DNA from: a virus
Reading direction: 5' to 3' (one strand)
Virus record (IMG/VR): IMGVR_UViG_3300009678_000001
DNA: 64,000 nucleotides
Of the stretch, positions 27,012 through 61,628 are shown piece after piece; position 1 is the stretch's first letter; every line of letters starts with the position of its first letter. The notes under the pieces are model-generated. The model worked only from the letters and a program-made list of their open reading frames with translations. It ran no database searches and had not been told where the DNA came from. A program made the position numbers and the translations under genes.

Positions 27012-27035
27012 ATGCTCAAGCGCCGCAGGGCTTTA
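27012..27035 (-). repeat. ISL element
   Basis: TAAAGCCCTGCGGCGCTTGAGCAT-ATG fills the whole 21-nt gap between the stop at 27033 and the ATG at 27011. Confidence 0.8.
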
Positions 27036-27227
27036 TGAATTATAATCCCTTTCACAAGACCGACTACAAAACACCTTTTCTTGCATCTCGTTCTTGTTTT
27101 TATCGTCCCTGTTAATACCATACCTGAATTTAGCAGGTTGGCCGCACCACGCGCACTCACCCTCTGCTTTTTGGCGCACAACGTTAAAACGTCCAAAAGG
27201 GTCTCTTGAGATTGATACTGTATTCAT
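27033..27227 (-). CDS. FCS/TRASH-like zinc-finger micro-protein
   Basis: 64 aa from the ATG 7 nt after the -10 box: ..RDPFGRFNVV..CAWCGQPA..VFCSRSCERDY. Confidence 0.55.
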   Translation of the reverse strand: MNTVSISRDPFGRFNVVRQKAEGECAWCGQPAKFRYGINRDDKNKNEMQEKVFCSRSCERDYNS

Positions 27228-27234
27228 GTTCTCA

Positions 27235-27262
27235 ATAATAGAGAGTCTTTTTATGTTTGCAA
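27235..27262 (-). promoter_or_regulatory. class I promoter
   Basis: TTGCAA-16-TATTAT, 7 nt to the ATG at 27227. Confidence 0.6.
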
Positions 27263-27264
27263 GA

Positions 27265-27460
27265 CTAAATTTGAGAGTGCCCACATTTTGGACATTTGAG
27301 CACGTCAACCATTGTAACCTTAGAAGGAAGGAAACTAAGCGTATCTCCGTCTCTTGCGGGTTTACCATCAAGGCGACCTGTACCATTGACAAGAGCTTTT
27401 ACCCTTTTTAAGGGGAACTTTACATCGCCAGCAAATTTTTGTGCCTTGTTTGGTCTTCAT
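27265..27460 (-). pseudogene. possible frameshifted small gene
   Basis: The ATG frame (MKTKQGTKICWRC..) stops after 30 codons. The +1 frame continues ..GDVKFPLKRVKALVNGTGRLDGKPARDGD..CPKCGHSQI* and ends exactly at the next -35 box. The upstream promoter copy has an 11-nt spacer. Confidence 0.3.
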
Positions 27461-27501
27461 GCTTTATGTTACTTTCCGTCAAATTATACAATATTTATGT
27501 G

Positions 27502-27684
27502 TCAACCGCAAATATCTTGTGGTCTATGAGTTACCTGTTCGCCATTTTTCGCCACAAGAACCACTGTTACCTGATATTCTTTGCGAGCTTTAAGCTGTTG
27601 CGCCGCTTTCTTTTGCGCCGAATAGGAGGTTTCAGCTTCGACTTCAATTTCCTTGCCACGATAAAAAGCTTTATATATATTCAT
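27502..27684 (-). CDS. hypothetical protein
   Basis: 60 aa with its own class I promoter. Confidence 0.6.
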   Translation of the reverse strand: MNIYKAFYRGKEIEVEAETSYSAQKKAAQQLKARKEYQVTVVLVAKNGEQVTHRPQDICG

Positions 27685-27691
27685 AAAAGAG

Positions 27692-27719
27692 ATTATACAT
27701 AGTCTTTTTTATGCTACAA
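27692..27719 (-). promoter_or_regulatory. class I promoter
   Basis: TTGTAG-16-TATAAT, 7 nt to the ATG at 27684. Confidence 0.6.
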
Positions 27720-27727
27720 GCCAAACT

Positions 27728-27922
27728 TTATACTGCTAGGGCTGTATTCGTCTCAATAGGTGGCATACACTGATTAATCACTTCTAGCAATTCTGACAAT
27801 TTATTGTCATCTATGCCAAGAAATTCCCCTATAATACTTCTCATATCCTTATCTGTTAAAGCCACTTGTGCAATTTTAAGGGTTTCGAGTGCCTCTTCTC
27901 TTGTAAATTCTTTTGTGTTCAT
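27728..27922 (-). CDS. hypothetical protein
   Basis: 64 aa. Confidence 0.55.
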   Translation of the reverse strand: MNTKEFTREEALETLKIAQVALTDKDMRSIIGEFLGIDDNKLSELLEVINQCMPPIETNTALAV

Positions 27923-27978
27923 TGATTATAAAAATAGCGTATAAGGAGAAGAGCCGCAAGTAAAATTAATATGCTCAT
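27919..27978 (-). CDS. 19-aa hydrophobic micro-ORF
   Basis: MSILILLAALLLIRYFYNQ. Coupled at both ends (TAAATG upstream, ATGA downstream). Confidence 0.25.
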   Translation of the reverse strand: MSILILLAALLLIRYFYNQ

Positions 27979-27982
27979 TTAT

Positions 27983-28252
27983 TTATTCCTGTTCCTCTTC
28001 TGTGTCTTTTTCTTCCAGTTCATCTTCCAGACGTTCAACAACCTCTGCGAGTGTATCACAACTAGACACAACCCACTCTTGACTTGTCGAAATTGCTGGT
28101 TCGCAATGCCCTAAAGTCCTATACTTGAATTGCTGGTACTCCTGTTGAGACATTGACCGCCGACAAATTTCCTTAAACTCGTTTAATCCTTCCTCTAGTT
28201 CAGTGGCGAGTTCTGCGAGACGTTCCCAATTAGCTTTTGTAATTTTATTCAT
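27983..28252 (-). CDS. hypothetical acidic protein
   Basis: 89 aa, C-terminal EDELEEKDTEEEQE. ATGAATAA overlap with the upstream gene. Confidence 0.6.
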   Translation of the reverse strand: MNKITKANWERLAELATELEEGLNEFKEICRRSMSQQEYQQFKYRTLGHCEPAISTSQEWVVSSCDTLAEVVERLEDELEEKDTEEEQE

Positions 28253-28451: not shown

Positions 28452-28457
28452 GGTTAA

Positions 28458-28485
28458 AAGATACAATATCTTTTTTAACTGTCAA
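28458..28485 (-). promoter_or_regulatory. class I promoter
   Basis: TTGACA-16-TATCTT, 6 nt to the ATG at 28451. Confidence 0.6.
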
Positions 28486-29362: not shown

Positions 29363-29387
29363 ATGCTCAGTCGCCGCAAGGGCTTTT
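29363..29387 (-). repeat. ISL element (inside a 5-prime leader)
   Basis: AAAAAGCCCTTGCGGCGACTGAGCAT-ATG, downstream of the promoter at 29419..29446. Confidence 0.75.
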
Positions 29388-29418: not shown

Positions 29419-29446
29419 ATTATACAATATCTTTTTAAACCTGCAA
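29419..29446 (-). promoter_or_regulatory. class I promoter (with leader)
   Basis: TTGCAG-16-TATAAT. An approximately 50-nt leader containing an ISL precedes the ATG at 29362. Confidence 0.55.
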
Positions 29447-30235: not shown

Positions 30236-30338
30236 CTCTCAAGCACCAAGGGGTTGAACTAACTCCTCATCGTCAAAAAACCAGCAAACATAAAGAGAAT
30301 TTCTGGCATTAGTGCAAAAATCGCGCATTTGGACAAAC

Positions 30339-30443: not shown

Positions 30444-30470
30444 GAAAAAAGCCCCCAAAAGGGGGGCTTT
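30444..30470 (-). terminator. intrinsic terminator
   Basis: Minus strand reads AAAGCCCCCC-tttt-GGGGGGC-TTTTTTC. Confidence 0.75.
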
Positions 30471-30615
30471 AGCCAATTTATTTGATAGACCTATATAACC
30501 CTTCAAAAGGGCCGGTTGGCGGCACTATCTTTTTAACGACTTTTAGCTACGCCGTATGAATTAGCCAACCCTATCACTTGAAAAGCTTAACAGATTTTTT
30601 CCAAAAAGCAACAAT

Positions 30616-30635
30616 AAAGCCCTTCGGCGTCTGAG
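30616..30635 (+). repeat. ISL element in inverted orientation
   Basis: The plus strand reads AAAGCCCTTCGGCGTCTGAG, the only copy seen on this strand within the minus block. It lies just downstream of the stop at 30639. Confidence 0.55.
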
Positions 30636-30638
30636 AAT

Positions 30639-31034
30639 TTAAGCTGCAACGGGTTCTGCCACTTCAGTTACAGGAATATTTTCTGTAACGTGCTCAGTCG
30701 CAGGCTGTTCGGGAGCATTGCTCACTCCTGACTTTTCAGCCGCTCGCGCCACCTTTTTGGCCAGTTTTTCAGCCTCTTTAGCCGCCTCTTCCTTGTGTTT
30801 ATTTTCCCAATAAGCCTTTTTCGAAGCTGAGATTTTGTCCCTTCCAGCTTGGCTCATCTTACTTCCCTTGGGTCGCCCCTTTCGAGTTTGAGAAGGAGAA
30901 GGAAGAAGGCTAGGAAGAGTTGAGGGAATATTAATTCCACTCATCAACTGATTGTATTCAGACTGCTTTACCGCAATCTCTTCCAGCAACTTTGCCGCTC
31001 GCAAGTGAGTTTCGGGCGTTAACACTATGTTCAT
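30639..31034 (-). CDS. basic, AT-hook-like DNA-binding protein candidate
   Basis: 131 aa. RKGRPKGSK followed by a Lys/Ala/Glu-rich helical region. Confidence 0.55.
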   Translation of the reverse strand: MNIVLTPETHLRAAKLLEEIAVKQSEYNQLMSGINIPSTLPSLLPSPSQTRKGRPKGSKMSQAGRDKISASKKAYWENKHKEEAAKEAEKLAKKVARAAEKSGVSNAPEQPATEHVTENIPVTEVAEPVAA

Positions 31035-32465: not shown

Positions 32466-32491
32466 ACGCACTCAAGCGCCGTGGGGCTTAT
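32466..32491 (-). repeat. ISL element
   Basis: ATAAGCCCCACGGCGCTTGAGTGCGT-ATG. Confidence 0.7.
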
Positions 32492-32554: not shown

Positions 32555-32582
32555 ATACTATCAAGGATTTTTCCTAAGTCAA
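32555..32582 (-). promoter_or_regulatory. sigma70-type promoter (with leader)
   Basis: TTGACT-16-TAGTAT. An 89-nt leader including an ISL precedes the ATG at 32465. Confidence 0.4.
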
Positions 32583-32686
32583 CAGGAATAATGGGGGAAC
32601 AACCTTATTTTTTTGGACTTTTTTAAGATTTTTTGCTCAATTTTGAGACATTTTAGGGTTTTTTCCTACTCTCAAGCGTCGATGAG

Positions 32687-32995
32687 CTATTTTATAATTT
32701 CAGCTAGAGGCCAAGTGGTTTCGTCCATTTCATAATTTTTATCTCCTTTTGAGAACCAGAATGTCCCTACTGAGCTACTGCAATTAGTAAAGCCGTGTGC
32801 GCGACAAGCATCAAAGACCGCCTGAACATCCTTGTCTTTATCCCATTTAAGTTCTGTACGTATTGCTGTGTATATTAATTCCCATTCTCCAGCACAAGCA
32901 ACGACTTTAGAATCAATTCGAAACTGATTCATTTTGTGGATTTGATAGGCCGCGACTGCAATAACAATACTATCGGGCATTTCAACTAGTTCCAT
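32687..32995 (-). CDS. hypothetical protein
   Basis: 102 aa. A degenerate ISL (32669-32689) follows its stop. Confidence 0.65.
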   Translation of the reverse strand: MELVEMPDSIVIAVAAYQIHKMNQFRIDSKVVACAGEWELIYTAIRTELKWDKDKDVQAVFDACRAHGFTNCSSSVGTFWFSKGDKNYEMDETTWPLAEIIK

Positions 32996-35023: not shown

Positions 35024-35051
35024 ATTATACGATATCTTTTTAAAACGTCAA
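35024..35051 (-). promoter_or_regulatory. class I promoter
   Basis: TTGACG-16-TATAAT, 6 nt to the ATG at 35017. The upstream TGA stop lies inside the -35 box. Confidence 0.6.
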
Positions 35052-35254: not shown

Positions 35255-35278
35255 ATGCTCAAACGCCGCAGGGCTTTA
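35255..35278 (-). repeat. ISL element
   Basis: TAAAGCCCTGCGGCGTTTGAGCAT-ATG lies between the stop at 35276 and the ATG at 35254. Confidence 0.8.
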
Positions 35279-35515: not shown

Positions 35516-35539
35516 ACTCTCAAGTGTCGCAGGGTTTTA
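35516..35539 (-). repeat. ISL element (variant)
   Basis: TTAAAACCCTGCGACACTTGAGAGT-ATG. Confidence 0.65.
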
Positions 35540-37579: not shown

Positions 37580-37605
37580 ATGCGCTCAAAAGCCGCGAGG
37601 CTTAG
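37580..37605 (-). repeat. ISL element
   Basis: CTAAGCCTCGCGGCTTTTGAGCGCAT-ATG. Confidence 0.7.
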
Positions 37606-37616
37606 TAATTTTTTGG

Positions 37617-37635
37617 TTAACGCCGCAGGGCTTAA
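37617..37635 (-). repeat. ISL element (second copy in tandem, no ORF between)
   Basis: TTAAGCCCTGCGGCGTTAAC, 12 nt upstream of the previous copy. Confidence 0.7.
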
Positions 37636-37655: not shown

Positions 37656-37683
37656 AAGATACACTATCTTTTTAAACTGTCAA
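37656..37683 (-). promoter_or_regulatory. class I promoter (with leader)
   Basis: TTGACA-16-TATCTT. A 76-nt leader carries two ISL copies. Confidence 0.55.
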
Positions 37684-38084: not shown

Positions 38085-38112
38085 ATTATACAAAATCTTT
38101 TTAAAATGTCAA
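38085..38112 (-). promoter_or_regulatory. class I promoter
   Basis: TTGACA-16-TATAAT, 8 nt to the ATG at 38076. Confidence 0.6.
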
Positions 38113-38295
38113 TGCTCCAAAGCCGCAGGGCTTTTTAATATGAATTGAATATCTGTTGTAATTTGGTCCGCAATTGGGTCCCCAATTTTAACCAACTGTT
38201 CGGTCCCAAATGTGATTTTCAACTTGTTCTTGAACTTGGTCCCTAATTTCGTACCTAACTTGGTCTTCAAGTGTATCCCAAACTTTCTTCCCTAT
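38110..38295 (-). pseudogene. decayed QVWD-family gene
   Basis: Repeat units are still readable (..VWDTLEDQVRYEIRDQVQEQVENHIWD..), but there is no ATG (ATA in its place) and an internal frameshift. It is flanked by ISL copies. Confidence 0.35.
38114..38136 (-). repeat. ISL element (perfect 6-bp stem variant)
   Basis: AAAAAGCC-CTGC-GGCTTTGGAGCAT abuts the TTGACA of the next promoter. Confidence 0.75.
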
Positions 38296-38298: not shown

Positions 38299-38323
38299 TG
38301 CTCAGACGCCGCAAGGCTTAAAG
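38299..38323 (-). repeat. ISL element embedded in the 3-prime end of a CDS
   Basis: AAGCCTTGCGGCGTCTGAGCAT is translated as ..KPCGV*, with the stop inside the element. Confidence 0.75.
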
Positions 38324-44232: not shown

Positions 44233-44249
44233 AAATGCTCCAAAACACC

Positions 44250-46034: not shown

Positions 46035-46057
46035 ATGCTCAAGCGCCGCAGGGCTTA
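46035..46057 (-). repeat. ISL element (consensus)
   Basis: CTAAGCCCTGCGGCGCTTGAGCAT-ATG, identical to the copy at 45809. Confidence 0.85.
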
Positions 46058-46330: not shown

Positions 46331-46358
46331 ATGATAGCGGGTCTTTTTTAAAAATCAA
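46331..46358 (-). promoter_or_regulatory. class I promoter
   Basis: TTGATT-16-TATCAT, 6 nt to the ATG at 46324. Confidence 0.6.
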
Positions 46359-47646: not shown

Positions 47647-48642
47647 TTAATAGTCCTGATTTAAAATCTTGACCGACAGTGATTTACCAAGAATTGGGGA
47701 ATATTTGGGCGTTATTGGTCGCAAAACAATCCCCTCTGCCTTGCGCTCTTGTCCTGTAGATGTGAGATAAATAGCCTTGTTAGCTTCTTCCTGAAGCCGC
47801 GCCATGGTCCAAGTATCATCAAATGTAAAAGGTTCACTAACAGGAATAACCACAGGAATTTGCAATTGGTTGCATAACTCATTTATTTCCTGCCAGTTAT
47901 ACCATTTGCCAGTATCAAATTCTTTAACATTAAAGACAAACATCTGAAAACTGTTCAGGCCCAATGGGTTACCTTGAATTTTGCCCCCGCAAGCCTCTGC
48001 TTGAATAGCAATGTTTTTACCCAACTCTTTAAGCTTAGAAGTTAGATTATATTGGTCTGCAATCTTCCAAAAGCCGGTCCCTTCTTTTTGCTCCAGCCGC
48101 CGACTGCAAACGCGAACTTCACCGTTTTCATAAATCACAGTCATTGAAGAACCGTCAGCTTTGATAGTTAAATAACAAAGTTCATTCCTAAACTCTTCTA
48201 AAATCTCTGGATAGTTTTGAATGTTTTCTTCGTCTGTAATTGAGATTAAATGAGTAGGAAAAGAACCCTTGGCGTCTCCATTAACAGAAGAATCAATAGG
48301 TTTGTCGTATTTTAAAATACCTAAAGCTTCCGAAACGTCCGAACCTTCTTCAACCTGATAGTTATAGCTTGGAATGATAGTTAAAGGGCAAACTAAACCC
48401 TGAGAAGGAGAGCCGCGAAACTTGGCGTTCCAGACACGATATTTTTGCCTTTCTAAAAAACTAAAATAAGAATTCGCGCTAGGAACAATAGAGTCAATAC
48501 GAATAAACACCACTAAATCGCCGTTTTTATATTCTCCCTTCTTAACCACAACAGGCCATTCTTTAATTTTGGCGACTTCAAGAGAGTCGGCGTTGAAATG
48601 TGGTTGGACGCTATGAATTCGTTCAATTGTGGCTAATTTCAT
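47647..48642 (-). CDS. RNA ligase, DRB0094-like (N-terminal OB domain plus nucleotidyltransferase domain)
   Basis: 331 aa. N-terminus MKLATIERIHSVQPHFNADSLEVAKIKEWPVVVKKGEYKNGDLVVFIRIDS. Motif I is the lysine in LTIKADGSS. Confidence 0.75.
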   Translation of the reverse strand: MKLATIERIHSVQPHFNADSLEVAKIKEWPVVVKKGEYKNGDLVVFIRIDSIVPSANSYFSFLERQKYRVWNAKFRGSPSQGLVCPLTIIPSYNYQVEEGSDVSEALGILKYDKPIDSSVNGDAKGSFPTHLISITDEENIQNYPEILEEFRNELCYLTIKADGSSMTVIYENGEVRVCSRRLEQKEGTGFWKIADQYNLTSKLKELGKNIAIQAEACGGKIQGNPLGLNSFQMFVFNVKEFDTGKWYNWQEINELCNQLQIPVVIPVSEPFTFDDTWTMARLQEEANKAIYLTSTGQERKAEGIVLRPITPKYSPILGKSLSVKILNQDY

Positions 48643-48786: not shown

Positions 48787-48809
48787 CTCTCAAGTGCCGA
48801 GGGGCTAAG
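48787..48809 (-). repeat. ISL element (CTC-loop variant)
   Basis: CTTAGCCCCTCGGCACTTGAGAGA abuts TTGACT. Confidence 0.7.
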
Positions 48810-48815: not shown

Positions 48816-48835
48816 CTAAGTGCGCCGCAAGGCTA
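48816..48835 (-). repeat. ISL element (tandem partner)
   Basis: TAGCCTTGCGGCGCACTTAG begins with the TAG stop of 48833..49084. Confidence 0.7.
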
Positions 48836-49532: not shown

Positions 49533-49757
49533 TTATTTTTGGTCCCAAACTTGGTCCTCAACTTGGTCCCAAACTTGGCCCTGAACTTGGTCCCAAACTT
49601 GGTCCCGAACTTGGTCCCGAACTTGGTCCCGAACTTGGTCCCGAACTTGGTCCCGAACTTGGTCCCAAACTTGGTCCCAAACTTGGTCCCAAACTTGGTC
49701 CCGAACTTGGTCCCGAACTTGGTCCCAAACTTGGTCCTCAACTTGACCCTCAATCAT
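49533..49757 (-). CDS. QVWD-repeat family micro-protein, hyper-regular member
   Basis: 74 aa consisting almost only of DQVW/DQVR units. The ATG and the minus-strand context favour this frame over the three other open frames. Confidence 0.6.
49541..49750. repeat. near-perfect 12-bp tandem array, about 17.5 units (ACTTGGTCCCRA)
   Basis: Read directly. The units differ mostly at one A/G position (Trp vs Arg codon on the minus strand). The outermost units carry a few other changes. Confidence 0.95.
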
Positions 49758-51409: not shown

Positions 51410-51430
51410 TGCTCAAGCGCCGCAAGGCTA
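51410..51430 (-). repeat. ISL element
   Basis: TAGCCTTGCGGCGCTTGAGCA-ATG. Confidence 0.8.
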
Positions 51431-51616
51431 GTTTATTTTTAGGTCTCTAACTTGGTCCCAAATTTGTCCCACAACTTGGCTTCTAAATTGGTCCTGTATT
51501 TGGCTTTGGCCCCAAATTTGTTTCTTGGTTTCATGCCCAACTTGGTCCCAAATTTCGCTCCAAATTTGGTCCCAAACTTGGTCCCGAACTTGTCTTTTTA
51601 TTAAATTACTATTCAT
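51428..51616 (-). CDS. QVWD-repeat family micro-protein
   Basis: 62 aa. [45 protein letters not shown]. Confidence 0.65.
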   Translation of the reverse strand: MNSNLIKRQVRDQVWDQIWSEIWDQVGHETKKQIWGQSQIQDQFRSQVVGQIWDQVRDLKIN

Positions 51617-51872: not shown

Positions 51873-51895
51873 CTCTCAAGCGCCGAGGGGCTAAG
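51873..51895 (-). repeat. ISL element (CTC-loop variant)
   Basis: CTTAGCCCCTCGGCGCTTGAGAG-ATG. Confidence 0.75.
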
Positions 51896-51896: not shown

Positions 51897-51912
51897 TTTC
51901 GCCGCAGGGCTA
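51897..51912 (-). repeat. ISL element (tandem partner, truncated)
   Basis: TAGCCCTGCGGCGAAAA begins with the TAG stop of 51910..52116. Confidence 0.65.
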
Positions 51913-52375: not shown

Positions 52376-52398
52376 TGCTCAAGCGCCGCAGGGCTTAA
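52376..52398 (-). repeat. ISL element (consensus)
   Basis: TTAAGCCCTGCGGCGCTTGAGCAT abuts TTGACA. Confidence 0.8.
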
Positions 52399-52407
52399 GC
52401 CCTTTTT

Positions 52408-52641
52408 TTAAAACGCCGAGGGGCTAAGCGCCATAGGGGGTTCTGTGTTCCAAGCTTGGTGCCAAATTTGGTTTTCTACTTGGCTCCCAATCTGTTCCCA
52501 AACTTGGTCCCAAATCTGTTCCCAAACTTGGCCCCAAACTTGGCCTTCTATTTGGTTCCAAATTTGGTCCCCAATATGGTGGTCCCCAATATGGTCCCTA
52601 ACTTGGTCCATAACTTGGTTCTGAATGTTGTCTCTTGTCAT
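52408..52641 (-). CDS. QVWD-repeat family micro-protein
   Basis: 77 aa. MTRDNIQNQVMDQVRDHIGD..QIWNQIEGQVWGQVWEQIWDQVWEQIGSQVENQIW. Confidence 0.65.
   Translation of the reverse strand: MTRDNIQNQVMDQVRDHIGDHHIGDQIWNQIEGQVWGQVWEQIWDQVWEQIGSQVENQIWHQAWNTEPPMALSPSAF
52410..52432 (-). repeat. ISL element embedded in the 3-prime end of a CDS
   Basis: GGCGCTTAGCCCCTCGGCGTTTTAA is translated as ..ALSPSAF*. Confidence 0.7.
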
Positions 52642-55498: not shown

Positions 55499-55722
55499 AC
55501 ATTAATAAAAACAATTTCTAAAAGCGTTTCTTTCACAATCCCGCTACGCAAATCAGATTGCGGCCAAAACATTGCATCCATTTGACTTCTAAAACGGTTG
55601 TTAACTTGCGCACTAATTTTGTCAAGAATAAACCATTCAGTTTTTTGAATTTCTACTCCGACGCTGTTGTGAACGCTGTTTTCTACTTTATTAAGCCGCA
55701 CTGACAAATCGTCCATTTTCAT
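55495..55722 (-). CDS. hypothetical protein
   Basis: 75 aa, overlaps the rIIB-like gene end by 32 nt. Confidence 0.5.
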   Translation of the reverse strand: MKMDDLSVRLNKVENSVHNSVGVEIQKTEWFILDKISAQVNNRFRSQMDAMFWPQSDLRSGIVKETLLEIVFINV

Positions 55723-56596
55723 CGCGCTTATTGTAATAAGTCACCTTAACCTTACCAAGCTTGTTTTTTTCGCTTGCAAACCTGCCAAAGGAGTCGCGCT
55801 TAGGGTTGAAAGCTTTAAGCCTGTTCCCTGTCACTTTACCAGAATACAGCCTTTCTGTCAAGATGTTGCCATTTTCCCATTTTCCAACCACCGAAACAGG
55901 AAGATATCTCCAAGCTCTGCCTTTGGACTTATTTAAATCTTGCGGGATTGCAACAACATCCATTGGATTAACTTTGACAACAACAACTTTAGTTTTGTTG
56001 TTTATAATACCCCCATAATAAGGCAAATAGGAATAAGAACAAAAATGTAGCCCATTTGAACAAAGCCTGATTCTGCTTGGGTCTACTTCATTGGGGTCCA
56101 TTTTGACAATCTTGCCAATAGCATGTTTCAAATGAGTGCCATCAGGAGACTTGTTATAGGAAGTCATGTCTTCTCTCAGCATCTTATAAGCAAGAAAACA
56201 CCCGTCATCAGTAATAGGCATCTCTCCATTTTCAAGAAAATCGTACAGTTCGTTTCGTGCATCTTCTGAAGGATTTTTATAGAGATTAGCCAAAAACCTC
56301 ACATAAGGTTCATAAGGGAAACCTCCTTGGACAAACTGTAAAATGCGCTTAACCAAGGTCCCATGAATTTCCTGTCCGTCATAATAAATCGCGCCGCTGT
56401 GGACTTTCACTTTGCCGTAGCTATGCTTTAGGATAGCGCCGGGAAGGTCCATTGCTTCAATCAGCTTCTTGTAATTCTTCTGTCTGTAAAACTCAAGAGC
56501 CTTTTGCCAATTTGGGTGGGTTGAATTGATGGAGTGCCGTTTACCATCTACCACCACAACCAGCACGTTGCCGTTAAAAATTGCTGAAACGTTCAT
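55691..56596 (-). CDS. rIIB: rIIB-like protein
   Basis: 301 aa. Blocks VVVDGKRHSINSTHPNWQKALE, GAIYYDGQEIHGTLVKRIL, YVRFLANLYKNPS, DDGCFLAYK, SNGLHFCSYSY and VVKVNPMDVVAIP parallel T4 rIIB as I recall it. Lies near an rIIA-like gene. Confidence 0.65.
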   Translation of the reverse strand: MNVSAIFNGNVLVVVVDGKRHSINSTHPNWQKALEFYRQKNYKKLIEAMDLPGAILKHSYGKVKVHSGAIYYDGQEIHGTLVKRILQFVQGGFPYEPYVRFLANLYKNPSEDARNELYDFLENGEMPITDDGCFLAYKMLREDMTSYNKSPDGTHLKHAIGKIVKMDPNEVDPSRIRLCSNGLHFCSYSYLPYYGGIINNKTKVVVVKVNPMDVVAIPQDLNKSKGRAWRYLPVSVVGKWENGNILTERLYSGKVTGNRLKAFNPKRDSFGRFASEKNKLGKVKVTYYNKRDENGRFVSAA

Positions 56597-56654: not shown

Positions 56655-56663
56655 CCTTTTTTT

Positions 56664-56682
56664 AAAACGCCGGAGGGGCTAA
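56664..56682 (-). repeat. ISL element (tandem partner)
   Basis: TTAGCCCCTCCGGCGTTTT begins with the TAG stop of 56679..56861. Confidence 0.65.
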
Positions 56683-56861
56683 AAAATGTCAAAAGTTTGG
56701 TCCCAAATACGGTCCAAAACTTGGTCTGCAACTTCATCTCTAAATTCACTAATGTCCCAAATTATAAGCGCAATCTGGCCCTTCACACTCCCCTCAACTT
56801 GGTCCGCTATTTGTCTTACGAGTGTGTCTTTAATTTTTTGGACCTTGTTATTTACTCTCAT
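56679..56861 (-). CDS. QVWD-repeat family micro-protein (divergent)
   Basis: 60 aa. ..VRQIADQVEGSVKGQIALIIWDISEFRDEVADQVLDRIWDQTFD. Confidence 0.5.
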   Translation of the reverse strand: MRVNNKVQKIKDTLVRQIADQVEGSVKGQIALIIWDISEFRDEVADQVLDRIWDQTFDIF

Positions 56862-57078
56862 AAAAAATCTGGTTCCAATGGTTTAGAAGGTATTCCCAAA
56901 TTGGGTCTGCAACATCCTCAATCGTAAGTGCAATACTGTCTCTTTGGTCCCAAATCAGGTCTCTTACTGACTGCCCAACGTGGCTTACAATTTGGTCAAC
57001 AAGGTGGTCGTCAGATTCATGAATTCGATTTCTAATTTGATAAAGAGTTTCGCTCTCAATTTTGGTTAAATATATCAT
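56848..57078 (-). CDS. QVWD-repeat family micro-protein (divergent)
   Basis: 76 aa. ..YQIRNRIHESDDHLVDQIVSHVGQSVRDLIWDQRD..ADPIWEYLLNHWNQI. Confidence 0.5.
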   Translation of the reverse strand: MIYLTKIESETLYQIRNRIHESDDHLVDQIVSHVGQSVRDLIWDQRDSIALTIEDVADPIWEYLLNHWNQIFYESK

Positions 57079-59180
57079 TTTTCCCTTATATAAGCCAAAA
57101 GGTCTTTTTGAATGTCTTCTTCCTCTTTCTCAAAACCGTAACTTTCCATTGCGTGTTTGATATAAGAATACAAAGGATAGTGTTTTAAAACATCGCTCTT
57201 AAGGCTCGCAAAATCAACACTGGGCGTTTTAGTGCTTTCAGTCGCAAGCATGAAACCTTTCTTTGCCGAATTAATTACATTAATAATAGCAAGTTTTTGG
57301 CGTGCCTTTTTGGAAGCAACCTCTAGCTTAATATAGGCTCTCAAAAGCTCCGCAAAGGGAGAATCTTTTTTCACGCCAGACCATTTATACTCGCCCAAAT
57401 AACTTTCCTCTATGCTGTCAAAAGCCTCTTTGTCTGCAATAAGCTGAGAAAGGTCTTCTTTGGCTATAGTCGCCTCAACCGCTTGAATTAAGTAATCCTT
57501 AAGAGTAACCCATTCGCTCAAATCTTCTTTAGCCACCAAAGCTTTCTTAAAACCATAGACTACAGGAACAGGATAATTAAGAGAACGTAAGGTGTCTAAA
57601 ACCGACTGAATAAATTTTGACCGTTTTTTGTCGTTTTCTTCCCAACAAACTTCATACCTGTCAATTTCAACATAGACCCCGCCCTCTTCAAGGTCTACTT
57701 CTGCAATATCCCAAAAATCACTTTTAGCCCTGCCATCAGGATTAAATACAAAGACCTTTTTGGAATTCTTCTCATTATTACCATTATAGGTATTGGGGGG
57801 CACAGGAAGCTCTTTAACCGACTTAAGTTGGGGAACCAAGTCTTCAAGCCCCATCTCTTTAAGTAGTAGCTCCCGATATTCGGGCTTAGTTGCCACAATC
57901 ATCCAAACATATTCACAATAAGTTTCTTTAAAATGATAGGAAACCCTGCTCTTACACCTTGTTGCGTCTTTAATGTAGACTTGCAAGTCTTTCTTAAAAG
58001 GCAATCTGTCTACAATCTCTAAAGATACCTTTTTGCGCCCGTTCCTATACCAACGCTCAATGAAAACATCATTGGGCTGTAGATTATTACGCTTATAAAA
58101 GTCTTCAGGAACCATAAAGTTAGTCCCCTTGACAGACTGACCGCCAAACTGAAGGTCTAAACCCTCAATAATATAGCGCAAGTTGCTGCTATAAGCTCCA
58201 TCTAGAAACAAATCAGCCCAAATTTCTCTGGCGTTCCAAAGAGTTCTGGCACTGGCAAATTTAGCCTTTACCGTCTCTTCAAATCCACCAATAATTTCTC
58301 GACATAAAAGCAAAATAGCATTCTTGGTCTTATCTGTATATTGTAAACCTTCCCGATTAACCGCAATATCAAGGTCGCCAATATTAAAATGAAACACTAA
58401 ACCAGACTGAAGAAGACGTTCTAGTTTAGCATCAAGACTGGTAAAAACACTGGCGCGAATGGGATATGCAACCTGCCCCATTACCGCATAAGAAGTGGTT
58501 TGATTCTTATACATCACCCAATTCTTACCACTAAAAGCCTCTTCCAGTGGAATTTGGTTATAGTAACGATTCCCTATAATTTTTGGCGCAACCTTCCAAA
58601 ACCTAAAAACATCCTGTGCTTTTAGTCGAAATTCTTCAAAATCAAATTCATTAACAGGGACAATAATTTCAATCCCATCTGGCTCTTCAGTGGGGCTTTT
58701 ATCCATTTGGGCAATACGCCCTTCCTGTGAAGGGTCAATGAAAGCAGTGTAAGTAGTCTTAACGCCTTCCTGATAACTTACAATAGAAAAACTGTCCCCG
58801 TAAGCAAAACCCGACTTGGAACCAATCCCCAACATCCCAATAGTCGCATTGGAATTTCTTTTCGTTGATTTGCAATACTTTACATAGGTATTGGTTACAT
58901 CTTCATCGCTGAGGCCAGTCCCAAAATCGCGCACTCGAAACTCTGGTTCCAAAACATTAGGCAAGTGAACTTGGATAGGAAGGTCCCCTTTTCCAGCCTC
59001 TACATTAGCGTCATAAGCATTACAGCTATATTCCCTGATAACAGCCTTGGTCTTATCCTCATAAAGACTGTTCCGTAGAATATGAAAAAGCATTGAAAAG
59101 TCTTGGGCATCAATCCCAAAACTATTCACTTTCAAATCACCTTCTGTTTCAAGAATCCGGCTCTGTTGTGTTAAAATCAT
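57075..59180 (-). CDS. rIIA: rIIA-like protein (N-terminal GHKL/HATPase_c domain)
   Basis: 701 aa. N-box VIREYSCNAYDAN, G1 VRDFGTGLS, G2 GMLGIGSKSGFAYGDSFSIVSY, DGIEIIVPV. Size and block order parallel T4 rIIA. Confidence 0.78.
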   Translation of the reverse strand: MILTQQSRILETEGDLKVNSFGIDAQDFSMLFHILRNSLYEDKTKAVIREYSCNAYDANVEAGKGDLPIQVHLPNVLEPEFRVRDFGTGLSDEDVTNTYVKYCKSTKRNSNATIGMLGIGSKSGFAYGDSFSIVSYQEGVKTTYTAFIDPSQEGRIAQMDKSPTEEPDGIEIIVPVNEFDFEEFRLKAQDVFRFWKVAPKIIGNRYYNQIPLEEAFSGKNWVMYKNQTTSYAVMGQVAYPIRASVFTSLDAKLERLLQSGLVFHFNIGDLDIAVNREGLQYTDKTKNAILLLCREIIGGFEETVKAKFASARTLWNAREIWADLFLDGAYSSNLRYIIEGLDLQFGGQSVKGTNFMVPEDFYKRNNLQPNDVFIERWYRNGRKKVSLEIVDRLPFKKDLQVYIKDATRCKSRVSYHFKETYCEYVWMIVATKPEYRELLLKEMGLEDLVPQLKSVKELPVPPNTYNGNNEKNSKKVFVFNPDGRAKSDFWDIAEVDLEEGGVYVEIDRYEVCWEENDKKRSKFIQSVLDTLRSLNYPVPVVYGFKKALVAKEDLSEWVTLKDYLIQAVEATIAKEDLSQLIADKEAFDSIEESYLGEYKWSGVKKDSPFAELLRAYIKLEVASKKARQKLAIINVINSAKKGFMLATESTKTPSVDFASLKSDVLKHYPLYSYIKHAMESYGFEKEEEDIQKDLLAYIREK

Positions 59181-59648: not shown

Positions 59649-59691
59649 CAATACCTTTTTTTTGTTACAAGGTATTATAATTATCTTAGAT

Positions 59692-59916
59692 TTAGTTTTC
59701 TATCTTTTCTTGAAAACAAGTATTAATTTTATCGCCTATAAGAATCTGGCTCTCCTGTCTCATTAAAAACATTGCTTCCTCTCCATCAGTTGTTGTTCCG
59801 TTCATTAAGCTAATATTTAAATCTTTAGACATGTCTACCTGTTGGCGAATTGATGTAGCTATGTCTACGAAAACCCTTTCTGATAAGCTTCCTTGAACAT
59901 AAGTTATGTGAAACAT
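59692..59916 (-). CDS. hypothetical protein
   Basis: 74 aa. Confidence 0.55.
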   Translation of the reverse strand: MFHITYVQGSLSERVFVDIATSIRQQVDMSKDLNISLMNGTTTDGEEAMFLMRQESQILIGDKINTCFQEKIEN

Positions 59917-59923
59917 AAAATAA

Positions 59924-59961
59924 GAAAAACAAGCACAAATTTCTTTATGCTTGTTTTTTTG
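59924..59961. terminator. bidirectional intrinsic terminator
   Basis: AAAAA-CAAGCA-12 nt loop-TGCTTG-TTTTTTT. T-rich sequence follows the stem on both strands. Confidence 0.65.
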
Positions 59962-59980
59962 CTCTTAATTTTAATTTGAT

Positions 59981-60292
59981 TCAGTCCGCCACTTTCCGAA
60001 CCATTTCTTGGAAGTAATCGTACTCCCGAACCCTGCCCACTTCCCACAACCCCTTATCAAGAGTGATAGGGGCGTGCTCTTCATGGACAACGGTCGCTGA
60101 CTTTTCCAGAGAGAGAAGAATTCTCTCGCCTTCCTGAATCAGTTCAAACTCGTCCTCTGCTTCGAGAATGTGACTGTGACCAGACTCGCCATGTGCTACC
60201 ACATAATGTCTTAGTTTTGTGACCTTGGCTTCCTTGGAAGGAGGTTGGGTCACCCTTTTGAACAGAACGTCGCCTTGTTGTGCGGTTTTCAT
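59981..60292 (-). CDS. hypothetical protein (conserved phage GDV..HGESGHSH type)
   Basis: 103 aa. QQGDVLFKRV..VVAHGESGHSHILE. Confidence 0.6.
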   Translation of the reverse strand: MKTAQQGDVLFKRVTQPPSKEAKVTKLRHYVVAHGESGHSHILEAEDEFELIQEGERILLSLEKSATVVHEEHAPITLDKGLWEVGRVREYDYFQEMVRKVAD

Positions 60293-60305
60293 ATATTGTT
60301 TCTCT

Positions 60306-60333
60306 ATTATATTACAGCTTTTTAAAAAGTCAA
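60306..60333 (-). promoter_or_regulatory. class I promoter (13-nt leader)
   Basis: TTGACT-16-TATAAT. Confidence 0.55.
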
Positions 60334-60335
60334 GC

Positions 60336-61355
60336 CTAGGTTAATTTCTCTGCATTCGTAAACCAATTACTGTTGCGCCATTTAAGGGCCGCTTCAATCG
60401 TGCTACATTCAGGGGCTACGCCCTCCAAATGCCACACTCCAACTGAAGGATTAAGCATCTTAAGATATTTGGCGTTTGGAACAACGTCTGATAAATTGAC
60501 ACTAAGAAGCTCATAGTTGCCAAGCTTTTCCAAAACCTTATGACTTAAGCTTACCAACATGCGCTCAATTCCAATTTTGCGAATTAGCTCTCTCCGCTTG
60601 TCCACATTGGTTTCTTTTAAAACTTCTTTGGGATTGAGTTTTTCCGCAGGAGTTAAAACCTGTTTTGGGGACATAGCTATTCCATTCAGGAAATAAAGCT
60701 TCCAACCATCAGAATATTCAACCGCTGGAGCTTCATCTTTGTGAAGTCGCCCTTCGCTATTGCGCCAAATTTGGGTTGGCTTGCTGGTAACAATGAGGCA
60801 GCTATCAGTAGGGTAAAAAAGGCCCAAATCCGCGCAAGCTTCAAGCTTATCGTAGTTTTTCATAACTTCAGCGTCAAATTTAACTCCAATCATCTTGTAG
60901 GCGCTTACCCACCCAAAATAATTGGAATAAAAATGACCATCAAAGTAGGGCCAGACAAAAAGCTTAATGGTATTTTTGAGCTTTGTAATAAGGTCCTCTT
61001 CTGAAAGAGGATTTTTGGACTTGAAAGTTATTTGGCTATTAATCTGTTCCCAAGTTGTTTCAAACAAGCCCCGCAAATTCTTATTTATCTCACTAAAACT
61101 GGGGCGCTTTGGATTCCAGTTTTCATAGCCCCCCTCACTCAAAAGGCAAAAGGCAATCCAACCGCCAAAAGGACTAGAAACATGAATGACGGGGTTTTTC
61201 TTGCCCAAAATTTGCTCGCTCCATTCGCCTCCTAGCCTTTGTGCTTCGCTGGTTGGAACTTGGCGACAGTCAAGCGCCCTGTCCCGCCAGTAATTCTTGA
61301 TTTCCTCAAGTTTTTTGACTTGTTCGTCAGTTAGTTTTTCGATTTTATCTGCCAT
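60336..61355 (-). CDS. hypothetical protein
   Basis: 339 aa, no recognised motif. Confidence 0.7.
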   Translation of the reverse strand: MADKIEKLTDEQVKKLEEIKNYWRDRALDCRQVPTSEAQRLGGEWSEQILGKKNPVIHVSSPFGGWIAFCLLSEGGYENWNPKRPSFSEINKNLRGLFETTWEQINSQITFKSKNPLSEEDLITKLKNTIKLFVWPYFDGHFYSNYFGWVSAYKMIGVKFDAEVMKNYDKLEACADLGLFYPTDSCLIVTSKPTQIWRNSEGRLHKDEAPAVEYSDGWKLYFLNGIAMSPKQVLTPAEKLNPKEVLKETNVDKRRELIRKIGIERMLVSLSHKVLEKLGNYELLSVNLSDVVPNAKYLKMLNPSVGVWHLEGVAPECSTIEAALKWRNSNWFTNAEKLT

Positions 61356-61387
61356 ATTTTTTTAAGTTGTTCTCTAAATCTGTAGCT

Positions 61388-61415
61388 ATGGTAACAAAAC
61401 TTTTTGAAATGTCAA
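61388..61415 (-). promoter_or_regulatory. class I promoter (32-nt leader)
   Basis: TTGACA-16-TACCAT. The upstream TGA stop lies inside the -35 box. Confidence 0.5.
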
Positions 61416-61606
61416 CAGTTTAGAAATTTTGAGCTTTCGTCCCAAATTTGTTCTGAAATTTGTTCCCAAGCGTCTTCAAGTCGAAAAAACTTCTCGTTCG
61501 CTATAATTTGGCTCCGAATTTGGAGATGAACTTGGTTATAAATTTCTCCTCCAATCAAACTCCGAAGTTCTATAATTTTAGTCGTCATCTGGTTCAAACG
61601 GTTCAT
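61412..61606 (-). CDS. QVWD-repeat family micro-protein (divergent)
   Basis: 64 aa. ..GGEIYNQVHLQIRSQIIANE..DAWEQISEQIWDE. Confidence 0.5.
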   Translation of the reverse strand: MNRLNQMTTKIIELRSLIGGEIYNQVHLQIRSQIIANEKFFRLEDAWEQISEQIWDESSKFLNC

Positions 61607-61628
61607 ATATTCAAGCGCCGAGAGACTA
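61607..61628 (-). repeat. ISL element (variant)
   Basis: TAGTCTCTCGGCGCTTGAATAT-ATG. Confidence 0.65.

Follow-up and report, generated by a model that had tools for sequence, protein, structure and literature searches.

The early region of a large, uncultured phage contains an intergenic element of approximately 21 nucleotides that is a genuine repeat of about 25 copies. It is most likely a mini H-type pseudoknot, GCC-N-NNN-GGC-GYUUGA-NNN, abutting the next start codon. The best explanation, offered tentatively, is that the element may be a factor-recognised RNA gate on translation initiation of the downstream cistron. The 64,000-nucleotide stretch analysed, called the window here, is the early region (rIIA, rIIB, RNA ligase) of this novel phage, which is approximately 209 kb in length.

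The 16-mer AAGCCCTGCGGCGCTT has 15 matches at three or fewer mismatches, against 0.21 expected. At E<0.01, a covariance model built from the copies found 24 hits (23 minus-strand, one plus-strand), and one further copy lies approximately 9 kb past the window end in the same genome. An earlier note on this DNA had described a roughly 25-fold repeat at gene junctions, and the count and all of its example coordinates are correct. All 24 hits fall within positions 27009-61632, with none in 1-27000. The copies are confined to the early-gene block, 23 of 24 are in the sense orientation, and their frequency is about one per four gene junctions. Four copies are identical across 21-26 nucleotides and two across 36 nucleotides; the flanking genes are unrelated.

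By prediction the hairpins have little stability (-3.5 to -6 kcal/mol, mean z = -1.05), and for some copies no fold is obtained. The repeat and its positions, as first described, stand; the reported covariation of a bulged 6-bp stem does not. Shuffles score as high as the copies in 305 of 500 trials for that stem and in 120 of 500 for its 3-bp core. The "bulge-less" variants at 38118 and 56637, cited as covariation, are one duplicated 36-nucleotide sequence and not independent events. The GAGCA/GAGAG tail, taken for an unpaired spacer, covaries with the hairpin loop.

The covarying positions are the last three loop bases and the three bases after the invariant GA. Stem S1 is GCC/GGC, L1 is 1-2 nucleotides, L3 is 6 nucleotides (G-Y-U-U-G-A), and S2 is formed by the last three loop bases and the three bases after L3. 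Taken alone, 3+3 bp of stem is marginal. S2 occurs as six kinds of triplet pairing (UGC:GCA, CUC:GAG, CGC:GCG, CAC:GUG, CUU:GAG, and UUC:GAA) and is completely paired in 19 of 22 copies. Paired cells make up 91.3% of S2 (shuffles: 81.5 +/- 1.9), and the covariation score reaches 0.369 where shuffles give 0.200 +/- 0.029; neither value was matched in any of 500 shuffles, and slid controls gave 26-50% pairing. In the loop-tail permutation test, P is < 1e-5 when copies are counted and only 0.02 with each loop/tail haplotype counted once, because the covariation rests on two large sub-families and four singleton haplotypes. It is by this covariation that the element reads as a pseudoknot. A recognised RNA motif typically shows such a pattern, with S1 and L3 conserved in sequence and S2 variable. 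The analysis supports a structural role as RNA linked to the following start codon, but with a loop-tail pseudoknot in place of the bulged stem proposed earlier. The copies, hairpin-only partner copies, and leader promoters are listed below.

27013-27033, minus strand: full element, class a; TAA stop overlaps the 5' edge; GCC-CUGC-GGC-GCUUGA-GCA, U, ATG (52-aa ORF)
29364-29384, minus strand: full element, class a; 5-nt loop CUUGC:GCA; ends a ~45-nt leader; U+ATG (97-aa ORF)
29419-29446, minus strand: promoter TTGCAG-N16-TATAAT; ATG not adjacent; leader ends in element 29364-29384
30236-30256, minus strand: full element, class a variant ACC-CCUU-GGU; S2 CUU:GAG; direct ATG (65-aa ORF); small upstream ORF stops 4 nt before
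30617-30637, plus strand: sole inverted copy; S2 UUC:GAA; directly past the stop of minus-strand gene 30639-31034; T-rich run next on the minus strand
32469-32489, minus strand: full element, class a; S2 CAC:GUG; CGU+ATG (147-aa ORF); ends a ~75-nt leader
32555-32582, minus strand: promoter TTGACT-N16-TAGTAT; ATG not adjacent; leader ends in element 32469-32489
32669-32689, minus strand: degenerate copy; TAG is the stop of a 102-aa ORF; one S2 mismatch; no ATG after
35256-35276, minus strand: full element, class a; TAA stop at the 5' edge; GCA, U, ATG (68-aa ORF)
35517-35537, minus strand: diverged class a copy; ACC..GAC; one S2 mismatch; U+ATG (79-aa ORF)
37583-37603, minus strand: full element, class a; S2 CGC:GCG; CAU+ATG (263-aa ORF); second element in a ~70-nt leader
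37613-37633, minus strand: hairpin-only partner copy, without L3/S2b; same leader as element 37583
37656-37683, minus strand: promoter TTGACA-N16-TATCTT; ATG not adjacent; leader carries elements 37613 and 37583
38113-38133, minus strand: class b, TTGACA-promoter fusion; L3 UUUGGA; 36-nt identity to copy 56632
38299-38319, minus strand: full element, no ATG after; S2 intact; GCA-UAAAUAG; upstream ORF stop is the TGA inside L3
40316-40336, minus strand: class a, type 2; ACC-CCUC-GGC-GCUUGA-GAG, U+ATG (83-aa ORF)
44278-44298, minus strand: class b, TTGACA-promoter fusion; upstream 119-aa ORF reads through and stops at the L3 TGA
45810-45830, minus strand: canonical class a copy; stop 3 nt upstream; GCA, U, ATG (115-aa ORF)
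46036-46056, minus strand: canonical class a copy; stop 4 nt upstream; ATG (66-aa ORF)
48787-48807, minus strand: class b, type 2; CUC:GAG; then A and a TTGACT promoter-like box
48820-48835, minus strand: hairpin-only partner copy; TAG is the stop of an 83-aa ORF
51410-51430, minus strand: class a; TAG stop is the first 3 nt; UUGC:GCAA, possible 4 bp; direct ATG (78-aa ORF)
51873-51893, minus strand: class a, type 2; CUC:GAG; direct ATG (87-aa ORF)
51897-51912, minus strand: hairpin-only partner copy; TAG is the stop of a 68-aa repeat protein
52376-52396, minus strand: class b, canonical element fused to a TTGACA promoter
52406-52426, minus strand: hairpin-only partner copy, followed by UUUUAAAAAAA
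56632-56652, minus strand: class b, element fused to the rIIB promoter; marks the 3' edge of an insertion of two ORFs that two relatives lack
56660-56680, minus strand: hairpin-only partner copy; overlaps the stop of a 60-aa ORF
61608-61628, minus strand: most diverged class a copy; GUC-UCUC-GGC; S2 not formed; TAG stop is the first 3 nt; U+ATG (64-aa ORF)

Of the 24 copies, 13 have the ATG that belongs to the consensus given earlier, at +5 to +8 after GCTT (binomial P = 3e-10; modal GCTT-to-ATG distance 6 nucleotides), and 13 copies have ATG 0-3 nucleotides downstream of S2b. A TTGACA -35 box takes the place of the ATG in 6-7 copies; the promoter-adjacent copies had been recognised before, and a TTGACA promoter lies directly 3' of five window copies. 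The association with stop codons was also borne out, the upstream stop overlapping or lying within 7 nucleotides of the element or its hairpin-only partner at most junctions. To the two leader copies already known (listed as 29363 and 37580, here 29364 and 37583) a third is added, 32469; all three lie in 5' leaders of 45-75 nucleotides without an upstream ORF. Two hairpin-only partner copies have UUUU directly 3'.

The stoperators of cluster A mycobacteriophages are asymmetric, occur in one orientation, and lie in short intergenic gaps. The element resembles them in these respects, with about 25 copies, some abutting -35 boxes, and could be a double-stranded DNA operator at which a phage protein blocks early promoters and elongation. 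This is very improbable. Covariation of S2 to new sequences is unexpected for such an operator, since changes in both triplets would not keep the protein-DNA contact, and no DNA-binding regulator was identified.

Approximately 37 genes near the elements have a promoter that ends about 6 nucleotides upstream of the ATG (modal spacing 6 nucleotides). The -10-to-ATG spacing is 6-9 nucleotides in approximately 32 of the 37 promoters, for implied leaders of 0-3 nucleotides. This placement implies that the early genes of the phage are mostly expressed from leaderless mRNAs. The earlier note was correct that no convincing Shine-Dalgarno (SD) sequence accompanies the element, and missed this wider context. 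Other internal genes of the phage have stop/start overlaps, and A-rich leaders of 13-32 nucleotides without the element are also present. A terminator scan of 27-47 kb found only one convincing intrinsic terminator, which indicates long transcripts. Relatives have the same promoter layout and lack the element, with short unstructured spacers at the homologous genes.

The modal GCTT-to-ATG distance equals the -10-to-ATG distance of the sigma70-type promoters, as it would if the element were an alternative promoter (middle-type or for a phage polymerase) whose conserved block ends at -7 and whose transcription starts at the A of ATG. This is the least probable of the explanations considered. Positions -12 to -7 lack a TAnnnT, no -35 or activator box is conserved upstream, no gene for MotA, AsiA, sigma, or RNA polymerase was seen within the window, and the loop-tail pairing would be left unexplained.

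The preferred explanation, the gate on initiation, would operate as follows. The element would be an RNA signal that acts in cis on the sense (minus-strand) transcript, with the next start codon 0-3 nucleotides past its 3' edge and the upstream stop usually in its 5' edge. It would mark cistrons that lack their own promoter or have a leader, amid leaderless early genes. When folded it would occlude the region from -1 to -22 and so gate initiation. The folded state would most likely be held by a phage or host factor reading the conserved S1 and L3 bases, a factor being favoured by the weak stand-alone stability. Either of two events might open the gate: termination of a ribosome at the stop codon within the element, or loss of the bound factor. 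Copies joined to -35 boxes would be junction copies left where a promoter-bearing cassette follows, and identical copies of 22-36 nucleotides would also supply sufficient homology for cassette shuffling, as in promoter-early stem-loops. The sequence itself shows the repeat with its bias in strand and region, the adjacency to ATG and to -35 boxes, the loop-tail covariation, the leaderless promoter layout, and the lack of the element in relatives, whereas the action as RNA, the binding of a factor, and the direction of the effect on translation are inferred.

Adjacency to ATG is kept at the ends of the three long leaders, where there is neither compaction pressure nor an upstream ORF, which argues for the gate. 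The same leaders rule out a pure termination-reinitiation linker as the general role, one of four roles listed earlier with none chosen. Support also comes from an unrelated metagenomic phage contig, L077, in which two consecutive genes have the same element abutting ATG and the remaining genes have normal SD sequences. Against the gate, the 6-7 copies by -35 boxes keep S2 intact with the start codon absent, so the model must treat them as relics. The element-free spacers in relatives and element-free A-rich leaders in the phage mean that the element is not required for initiation. Similar sequences in a different phage lineage (L004/L011) are found in either orientation and also within coding termini.

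T7 early mRNAs are cleaved at intercistronic RNase III sites, and mitochondrial mRNAs become leaderless through tRNA punctuation. As in these systems, structured signals would recur between the cistrons of one polycistronic transcript. An endoribonuclease might recognise the pseudoknot and cut at its 3' edge. The upstream product would be an mRNA with a compact 3' structure, the downstream product would have its 5' end 0-3 nucleotides before the AUG and be leaderless like the promoter-driven genes, and before -35 boxes the element would just end the upstream transcript. This possibility, less likely than not but a serious rival to the gate, has one function covering both contexts and works for the three leader copies as well. 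The element-ATG distance equals the implied 0-3-nucleotide leaders, the conserved S1 and L3 suit recognition by an enzyme, and long transcripts are implied. However, no nuclease or RNA-binding regulator candidate was recognised among the 98 ORFs, and the structure, at 3+3 bp, is far below the size of an RNase III substrate, the known signals being long double-stranded hairpins or whole tRNAs and cleavage here being putative. The benefit is doubtful because element-free leaders are tolerated, and relatives lack the element.

The promoter-early stem-loops (PeSLs) of T4-type phages (Arbiol et al. 2010, PMC2839356; Comeau et al. 2014, PMC4122927) are, with the mycobacteriophage start-associated sequences treated below, the closest known systems. 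Like PeSLs, the element recurs as a cassette between genes in a region of small early ORFs, spans the upstream stop to the downstream start, and in 6-7 copies is a GC-rich inverted repeat just ahead of a near-consensus sigma70 promoter. Its copies are similar enough to recombine by homology, and an element lies at the end of one insertion seen in comparison with relatives. The PeSL analogy drawn earlier holds for these fusions and is consistent with the rIIA-rIIB insertion. It fails for the 13 promoter-less copies abutting ATG, and for the stem-loop, which is too weak and lacks the U tract of a terminator. PeSLs further differ in that the genes here are leaderless and the element has no SD, its conserved part is a covarying loop-tail pseudoknot, and no close relative is available here to reveal exchange.

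As a main role, a PeSL-type joint, with 22-36 bp of linker homology for cassette excision, insertion, and swapping and with incidental RNA structure, is unlikely, though it still competes with the gate. It would account for the identical copies between unrelated flanks, the relatives without the element, and the two-ORF insertion, which ends at hairpin, element, and promoter where L002 and L122 have rIIB directly after rIIA. Element-flanked genes are non-syntenic with L002, the double forms resemble unequal-crossover scars, and the related sequences in L004/L011 lie at gene ends and are read in three frames. Homology alone does not, however, predict the compensatory loop-tail changes or the ATG adjacency kept within long leaders. 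With about one element per four junctions some coincidence with breakpoints is expected, and at 40-56% protein identity to the relatives no breakpoint is mappable.

The other PeSL function, a transcription attenuator or insulator whose structure would pause or terminate RNA polymerase from upstream units, is highly unlikely. The position right past stop codons and just ahead of promoters would suit it, as would the UUUU after two hairpin-only partners and the inverted copy at 30617 ahead of a T-rich run and a strong terminator. Stems of 3-6 bp with the free energies given above were nevertheless missed by the terminator scan, and termination would silence the promoter-less genes behind 13 copies.

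The start-associated sequences (SAS/ESAS) of cluster K mycobacteriophages (Pope et al. 2011, PMC3203893) are similar in distribution. They too are short, asymmetric, conserved sequences (11-19 copies), all facing the same way except for one reversed copy, restricted to the non-structural genome half, ahead of the ATG of unrelated genes (3-7 bp upstream, against 0-3 nucleotides here), sometimes containing the upstream stop codon, and absent from other phages. Unlike the element, the SAS (GGGATAGGAGCCC) contains an SD core. RNA pairing is unsupported for the ESAS, for which the authors favour DNA-binding proteins, whereas the element shows compensatory pairing. As of 2025, the function of SAS/ESAS was still untested (PMC12699233).

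Among phage RNA operators and riboswitches there are partial parallels. T4 RegA targets are AU-rich, unstructured translational operators, and the gene 32 leader of T4, T2, and T6 contains a small, single-copy H-type pseudoknot approximately 40-70 nucleotides upstream of the start. As proposed for the element, these are RNA elements at or by the initiation regions of several phage genes; a phage protein controls translation there, but no RegA or gp32-type regulator was identified here. The preQ1-I riboswitches are minimal H-type pseudoknots of approximately 21-34 nucleotides. As a predicted pseudoknot, the element is like them in size and architecture, in a 3' helix that abuts or covers the initiation region, and in conserved loops with covarying helices, and it has neither a sequence match nor an Rfam match. 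About 25 copies in one phage before unrelated genes is unlike any riboswitch, and no ligand is implied. The element, most likely a pseudoknot, adds a new form to the repeated signals found at gene junctions in other phages.

No near match to the window was found by megablast among 50,697 phage GenBank records. Its rIIB gene is identical on a 208,805-bp ENA contig (ERZ27267619, k141_1231447) and on two short contigs, all of which derive from this phage (99.9-100% identity). The minus strand contains about 100 small ORFs from 22 to 64 kb. The following genes serve as landmarks.

57075-59180, minus strand, rIIA
55691-56596, rIIB
47647-48642, RNA ligase

An RlaP-type nucleotidyltransferase and an AAA protein are also encoded, and the left side of the window contains a large-terminase-like protein, an ERCC4 nuclease, and an ArdC-like protein. 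The window is therefore the early-gene region of a novel, uncultured phage of about 209 kb. The rIIA protein shares at most 38% identity with any match found, and the phage is only distantly T4-like. The nearest relatives by rIIB identity are contigs L122/L123 (56%) and L002, a 202-kb viral contig (51%). RegA, RegB, MotA, AsiA, a sigma factor, and a recognizable RNA-binding protein were not found among 98 ORFs. The intervals 24781-25668 and 8019-9029 are listed for an ArdC-like antirestriction/metallopeptidase protein and a zinc-finger ERCC4 nuclease. The intervals 61974-62981 and 11282-12289 are listed for an AcrVA2-like protein (precomputed Pfam match, source contig) and an opposite-strand HNH homing-endonuclease-like gene.

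The repeated element is about 21 nucleotides in length and has the consensus AAGCCCTGCGGCGCTTGAGCAT, which lacks a Shine-Dalgarno (SD) sequence. Its 16-mer core has 15 matches with three or fewer mismatches against 0.21 expected. A position-weight scan identified 22 copies above 18 bits on the minus strand, while shuffled sequences gave 0 to 6 hits at a far lower cutoff of 8 bits. The covariance model proposed in the earlier note was built from 24 copies (alignment A1) and searched without filters. It returned 24 matches with E < 0.01, of which 23 are minus-strand and one is plus-strand (30613-30641). Every match falls within 27009-61632, with none in the first 27 kb. Neither the strand bias (P = 1.5e-6) nor the confinement to this block (P = 4e-7) is due to chance. 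One further copy, fused to a TTGACA box, lies approximately 9 kb beyond the window end in the same genome. The count of about 25 copies in the earlier note is therefore confirmed, as are all of its example coordinates.

The element had been described there as a 6-bp bulged stem supported by covariation. That stem is paired in 81% of alignment cells. Its covariation score was reached by shuffles in 305 of 500 trials, and that of its invariant 3-bp GCC/GGC core in 120 of 500. Predicted hairpin energies range from -3.5 to -6 kcal/mol with a mean z of -1.05, and no fold is predicted for two copies. One 36-nt duplicate accounts for both "bulge-less" forms (38118 and 56637), which were cited as variants that keep the pairing. 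The claimed covariation was not borne out, and the 6-bp stem was rejected as the constrained structure because of this and its weak energies.

A different pairing is present in the 22 copies whose 3' half could be aligned. The GGC is always followed by six nucleotides, G-Y-T-T-G-A, of which the final GA is invariant, and the three bases after GA complement the last three bases of the loop. The element can thus be read as GCC-N-NNN-GGC-GYUUGA-NNN, where GCC and GGC form stem S1, the last three loop bases and the terminal three bases (S2b) form stem S2, and the six nucleotides preceding S2b are loop L3. Six complementary S2 combinations are present.

UGC:GCA, 11 copies
CUC:GAG, 4 copies
CGC:GCG, copy at 37603
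CAC:GUG, copy at 32489
CUU:GAG, copy at 30256
UUC:GAA, inverted copy

All three S2 positions are paired in 19 of the 22 copies, and the exceptions are the three most degenerate. On alignment A3, 91.3% of cells are paired for S1 and S2 together (shuffles, 81.5 +/- 1.9), and the covariation score is 0.369 (shuffles, 0.200 +/- 0.029). None of 500 shuffles reached the observed value of either measure. Sliding the partner by one to three columns reduces pairing to 26-50%. Because two sub-families hold most of the double changes, the tails were also permuted among the loops. This gave P < 1e-5 on all copies and P = 0.02 when each distinct haplotype was counted once (6 of 9 perfect, 2.9 expected). 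A fourth S2 pair, between the first loop base and the base after S2b, was discarded; 20 of 23 window rows lack it, and it shows no association in 50 de-duplicated metagenomic clusters.

The geometry is a 3-bp S1, an L1 of 1-2 nucleotides, a 3-bp S2, no L2, and a 6-nucleotide L3. This corresponds to a classical H-type pseudoknot, in which the loop would pair with a downstream segment and compensatory changes would preserve that pairing. Judged from the alignments, the loop-tail pairing is probably real. S1 and L3 are conserved in sequence and S2 varies, which favors recognition of a folded single strand over a protein site on duplex DNA. The base-pairing constraint makes sense only for a single strand, and a DNA operator is very improbable.

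A terminator is similarly improbable. The elements have no U tract and no GC-rich stem of at least 5 bp followed by a U run. A terminator scan gave 12 sites against 15.3 expected, none of which is a full sense-strand element; the sole overlapping match (37590-37603) is the plus-strand complement of the copy at 37583-37603. Only one convincing intrinsic terminator was found between 27 and 47 kb (30448-30470, minus strand; AAAGCCCCCC-TTTT-GGGGGCTTT plus a T run). It lies shortly after the inverted copy and before a promoter, marking a transcription-unit boundary. Rfam 15 gave no match at the gathering score for the window and 27 related loci, and only chance-level matches for 44-53 kb at E <= 10. 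Against E. coli 16S rRNA, which may not resemble the rRNA of the host, the best duplex is -28.0 kcal/mol (shuffled, -25.7 +/- 2.2; fraction 0.18). For 23S rRNA, with the same reservation about the host, the shuffle fraction is 0.61. An rRNA-complementary translational enhancer was rejected, as complementarity to these rRNAs does not exceed that of shuffles.

The copies can be sorted by their context as follows.

27013, 29364, 30236, 32469, 35256, 35517, 37583, 40316, 45810, 46036, 51410, 51873, 61608 (starts), class a, element followed by ATG, 13 copies
38113, 44278, 48787, 52376, 56632, class b, element followed directly by a TTGAC(A/T) -35 box, five copies in the window and one outside
37613, 48820, 51897, 52406, 56660, hairpin-only partners lacking the 3' half, 20-30 nucleotides upstream of a full copy
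38299, 32669, full copies with no start after them
30617, plus strand, inverted copy

An ATG is present at one of four offsets in 13 of the 24 copies (P = 3e-10). The distance from the 3' edge of the pseudoknot to the ATG is 0 nucleotides in three copies, 1 in eight, and 3 in two, and the ORFs begun there encode 52-263 aa. The -35 box of class b lies 0-1 nucleotides after the same edge. An alternative promoter is very unlikely. At most junctions, the upstream ORF ends with a stop codon that overlaps the 5' edge of the element or is no more than 7 nucleotides from the element or its partner copy. At two junctions, the upstream ORF runs into the element and ends at a TGA in its 3' half.

The genes flanking the copies show no relationship to each other. 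At seven junctions, the preceding gene belongs to one repeat-protein family; two of the seven share 14 extra upstream bases, so that a few copies were duplicated together with their neighbor. At least 12 paralogous small ORFs (45-90 aa; 38109-62013, minus strand) are composed of 12-nucleotide tandem repeats, GGGACCAAGTTx, encoding the tetrapeptide [W/G/R][D/E/N]Q[V/I]; in one of them, the number of near-perfect units is 17. GGRMCMAAKTT is matched 44 times, with 1.2 expected. Examples of the ORFs are 49533-49757, 52408-52641, 51428-51616, 46348-46542, and 61626-61811, and in several cases the ORF end coincides exactly with an element.

Three promoters (29446-29419, 37683-37656, and 32582-32555) have no adjoining ATG. 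Their leaders are 45, 70, and 75 nucleotides long, A/U-rich, and without an ORF, and each ends in the element and an ATG. Tight packing could explain the adjacency at crowded junctions, but not in these three leaders. It is thus the element itself that is tied to the start codon, and a terminating ribosome cannot be the sole agent acting on it, since the leaders contain no ORF. We infer with confidence that the element functions on the sense strand, in a single orientation, and is tied to the next start codon. Four other promoters have A-rich leaders of 13-32 nucleotides without the element, and the L002 homologues of element-preceded genes have short unstructured spacers upstream. The element is thus not needed for initiation as such, and adds either regulation or processing. 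The 17-nucleotide leader of the gene at 44232 (44233-44250, minus strand), GGTGTTTTGGAGCATTT-ATG, includes TGGAGCAT, which is identical to bases in the 3' half of the 38113 and 56632 variants. This leader lacks a hairpin and may be an element remnant.

A TTGnnn-N16-TAnnnT promoter precedes at least 37 genes on the minus strand, with 4-9 nucleotides between the end of its -10 hexamer and the ATG. The spacing is 6 nucleotides in 17 cases and 7 in eight. About 37 sigma70-type promoters with a conserved TTTAAAAAGAT spacer are found on the minus strand at 22000-64000 (for example, 35024-35051, 38085-38112, and 28458-28485). Transcription from sigma70 promoters usually starts about 7 nucleotides after the -10 hexamer, so that here it would begin 0-3 nucleotides from the A of the ATG. 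Genes with this layout are likely expressed as leaderless mRNAs. By the same reasoning, most early genes should be leaderless, and almost none has an SD. Stop/start overlaps (ATGA, TAATG) are present at other internal genes, and SD-like purine runs occur at a few. The earlier note was right that no SD accompanies the element (no copy has one) and missed this wider leaderless-gene setting. The promoter layout, with about 37 promoters in 40 kb, is common to L002 and may be a clue to the host.

The conserved unpaired bases and low intrinsic stability suggest a trans-acting partner. The element is tentatively read as a factor-recognized RNA gate on initiation of the downstream cistron, although this reading falls short of even odds. 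For copies with a stop codon embedded at the 5' edge, coupling of the downstream cistron to upstream translation would be a further effect of the gate. The closest rival is cleavage at the 3' edge of the element, releasing a leaderless mRNA. This would account better for the -35-adjacent copies and would mirror the 0-3-nucleotide leaders of the promoter-driven genes, and is a possible but less probable reading than the gate. It is somewhat more doubtful that the pseudoknot serves as a "punctuation mark" letting an internal cistron act as a leaderless mRNA, by nuclease cut or ribosome docking. A host tRNA-processing-type or other structure-specific nuclease might be directed to the 3' edge, as a phage counterpart of mitochondrial tRNA punctuation. 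Alternatively, ribosome docking might load the adjacent AUG without an SD or a free 5' end, similar to a minimal bacterial IRES.

No copy of the element was found in L002 or L122/L123. The rIIA and rIIB genes adjoin each other in both relatives (L002:12121-12144; L122:5990-6028). In the window they are separated by one insertion (56679-57078), which comprises two small ORFs (76 and 60 aa), a hairpin-only copy, a full element, and the rIIB promoter and ends at an element. The element-flanked genes 46034-45834 and 51872-51609 have L002 homologues at non-syntenic places. The insertion and the non-synteny fit a role as a junction or in recombination; this is weak evidence, because about one quarter of the junctions carry the element and the relatives are distant. 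For breakpoint comparison, the other contigs are the same phage, and L002 and L122 are too distant (rIIB 51-56%). A recombination joint like the promoter-early stem-loops (PeSLs) of T4-type phages is plausible as a secondary role and rather unlikely as the only one. Cassette sharing between motif-carrying lineages was rejected; all that these lineages have in common is an ArdC-like protein and a distant ERCC4 domain.

The earlier note had likened one of its possible roles for the element, a recombination joint, to PeSLs. All copies lie within the block of small minus-strand ORFs by rIIA/rIIB, as expected of PeSLs, and the promoter-fused copies resemble them (PMC2839356, PMC4122927). The PeSL composite of a stem-loop, a sigma70-type early promoter (plus an SD), and an ATG is found only in five window copies and one outside; 13 copies are promoter-less and abut the ATG. 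PeSLs also have a stable terminator stem-loop, whereas the predicted stem here is weak. The analogy holds for the promoter-fused copies and fails for the family as a whole.

The distribution of the element is closest to that of the start-associated sequences (SAS) of cluster K mycobacteriophages, which are defined as short, asymmetric, one-orientation repeats a few bp before the starts of unrelated non-structural genes (PMC3203893). The element has all of these features. Unlike the SAS consensus, GGGATAGGAGCCC, which contains the SD core, the element has neither that sequence nor an SD. SAS function is still untested (PMC3203893, PMC12699233). Nothing relevant to the element sequence was found in the searchable literature, and no described family joins a covarying mini-pseudoknot, start-codon contact, about 25 copies, and a leaderless background.

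A metagenome scan with a 20-mer of the element identified at least 116 loci. Among the matches listed, most occur singly and in unrelated surroundings, the other strand is frequently coding (..LLKRRKA*), and chance would predict a similar number. An 18-mer scan of genome contigs gave only single matches in unrelated taxa, at about the chance number. A "universal" motif was rejected on these counts, and a borrowed host REP-like repeat was rejected because the 18-mer scan found no bacterial genome with many copies. In a viral scan with the loop and S2b left free, 10 of 97 matches are fully paired, a weak excess (5.3 +/- 2.1 expected, P = 0.03), and no new multi-copy phage was found.

A minority of the metagenome-scan contigs contain several diverged copies. 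L077, an SD-using phage-like contig, has two consecutive genes preceded by an element abutting the ATG. L001 and L059 contain the S2 variants UCC:GGA and UGC:GCA, which are not at gene starts; a reading of the L001 copies as an SD inside S2b before a start codon was dropped because the supposed GTG start is followed by a terminator. L021 and L115 have more than one copy each. In a GC-53% phage lineage (L004, L011, L047, L007), gene ends carry related sequences in either orientation; these are translated in three frames within N- and C-terminal tails, and only two of the three S2 pairs are kept. These occurrences outside the phage are leads, not proof of a wider family.

Three further observations were made. 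The N-terminal region of RecT-like genes (L004, L011, L047; for example, L047:2788-3456) has one to four tandem antisense motif copies, read as AQTPQGL, SNAAGL, and similar, in a frame that differs between phages; the C-terminal tails of neighboring genes have the same motif. A bacterial multi-hairpin repeat of approximately 95 nucleotides (TCCRAG-hairpin-GGCAAG-GGCG..GCCC-hairpin, tandem G.A) ends in AGCCYTGCGGCGCTTGAGCA, the 20-mer of the element. It is present in L023, L025, L039, L042, L058, L061, L080, L088, L092, L095, L100, L105, and L111 (metagenomic, GC 0.57-0.64), shows compensatory hairpin changes, is often followed by an SD and the ATG of unrelated genes, is tandem in L111, and is absent from Rfam. 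Truncated 5' fragments of tRNA-Ser/tRNA-Val genes (L103:3736-3780 and the L005 3' end, minus strand, just upstream of tRNA-Val 1469-1544) are joined at the D-loop to CCAGCCYTGCGGCGCTTGAGCA, upstream of an intact tRNA.

The 21-nucleotide motif is small enough for direct biochemistry and, if portable, could serve as an SD-independent expression or processing tag. By either punctuation route, it would be a portable SD-independent expression signal travelling with gene cassettes. If the proposed function is correct, the element would provide the long-unexplained SAS repeats with a structurally defined counterpart, and compensatory mutants of this counterpart can be designed at once. It would also show how a leaderless-gene phage expresses or regulates cistrons lacking their own promoter, and would represent a post-transcriptional layer not described for large lytic phages.
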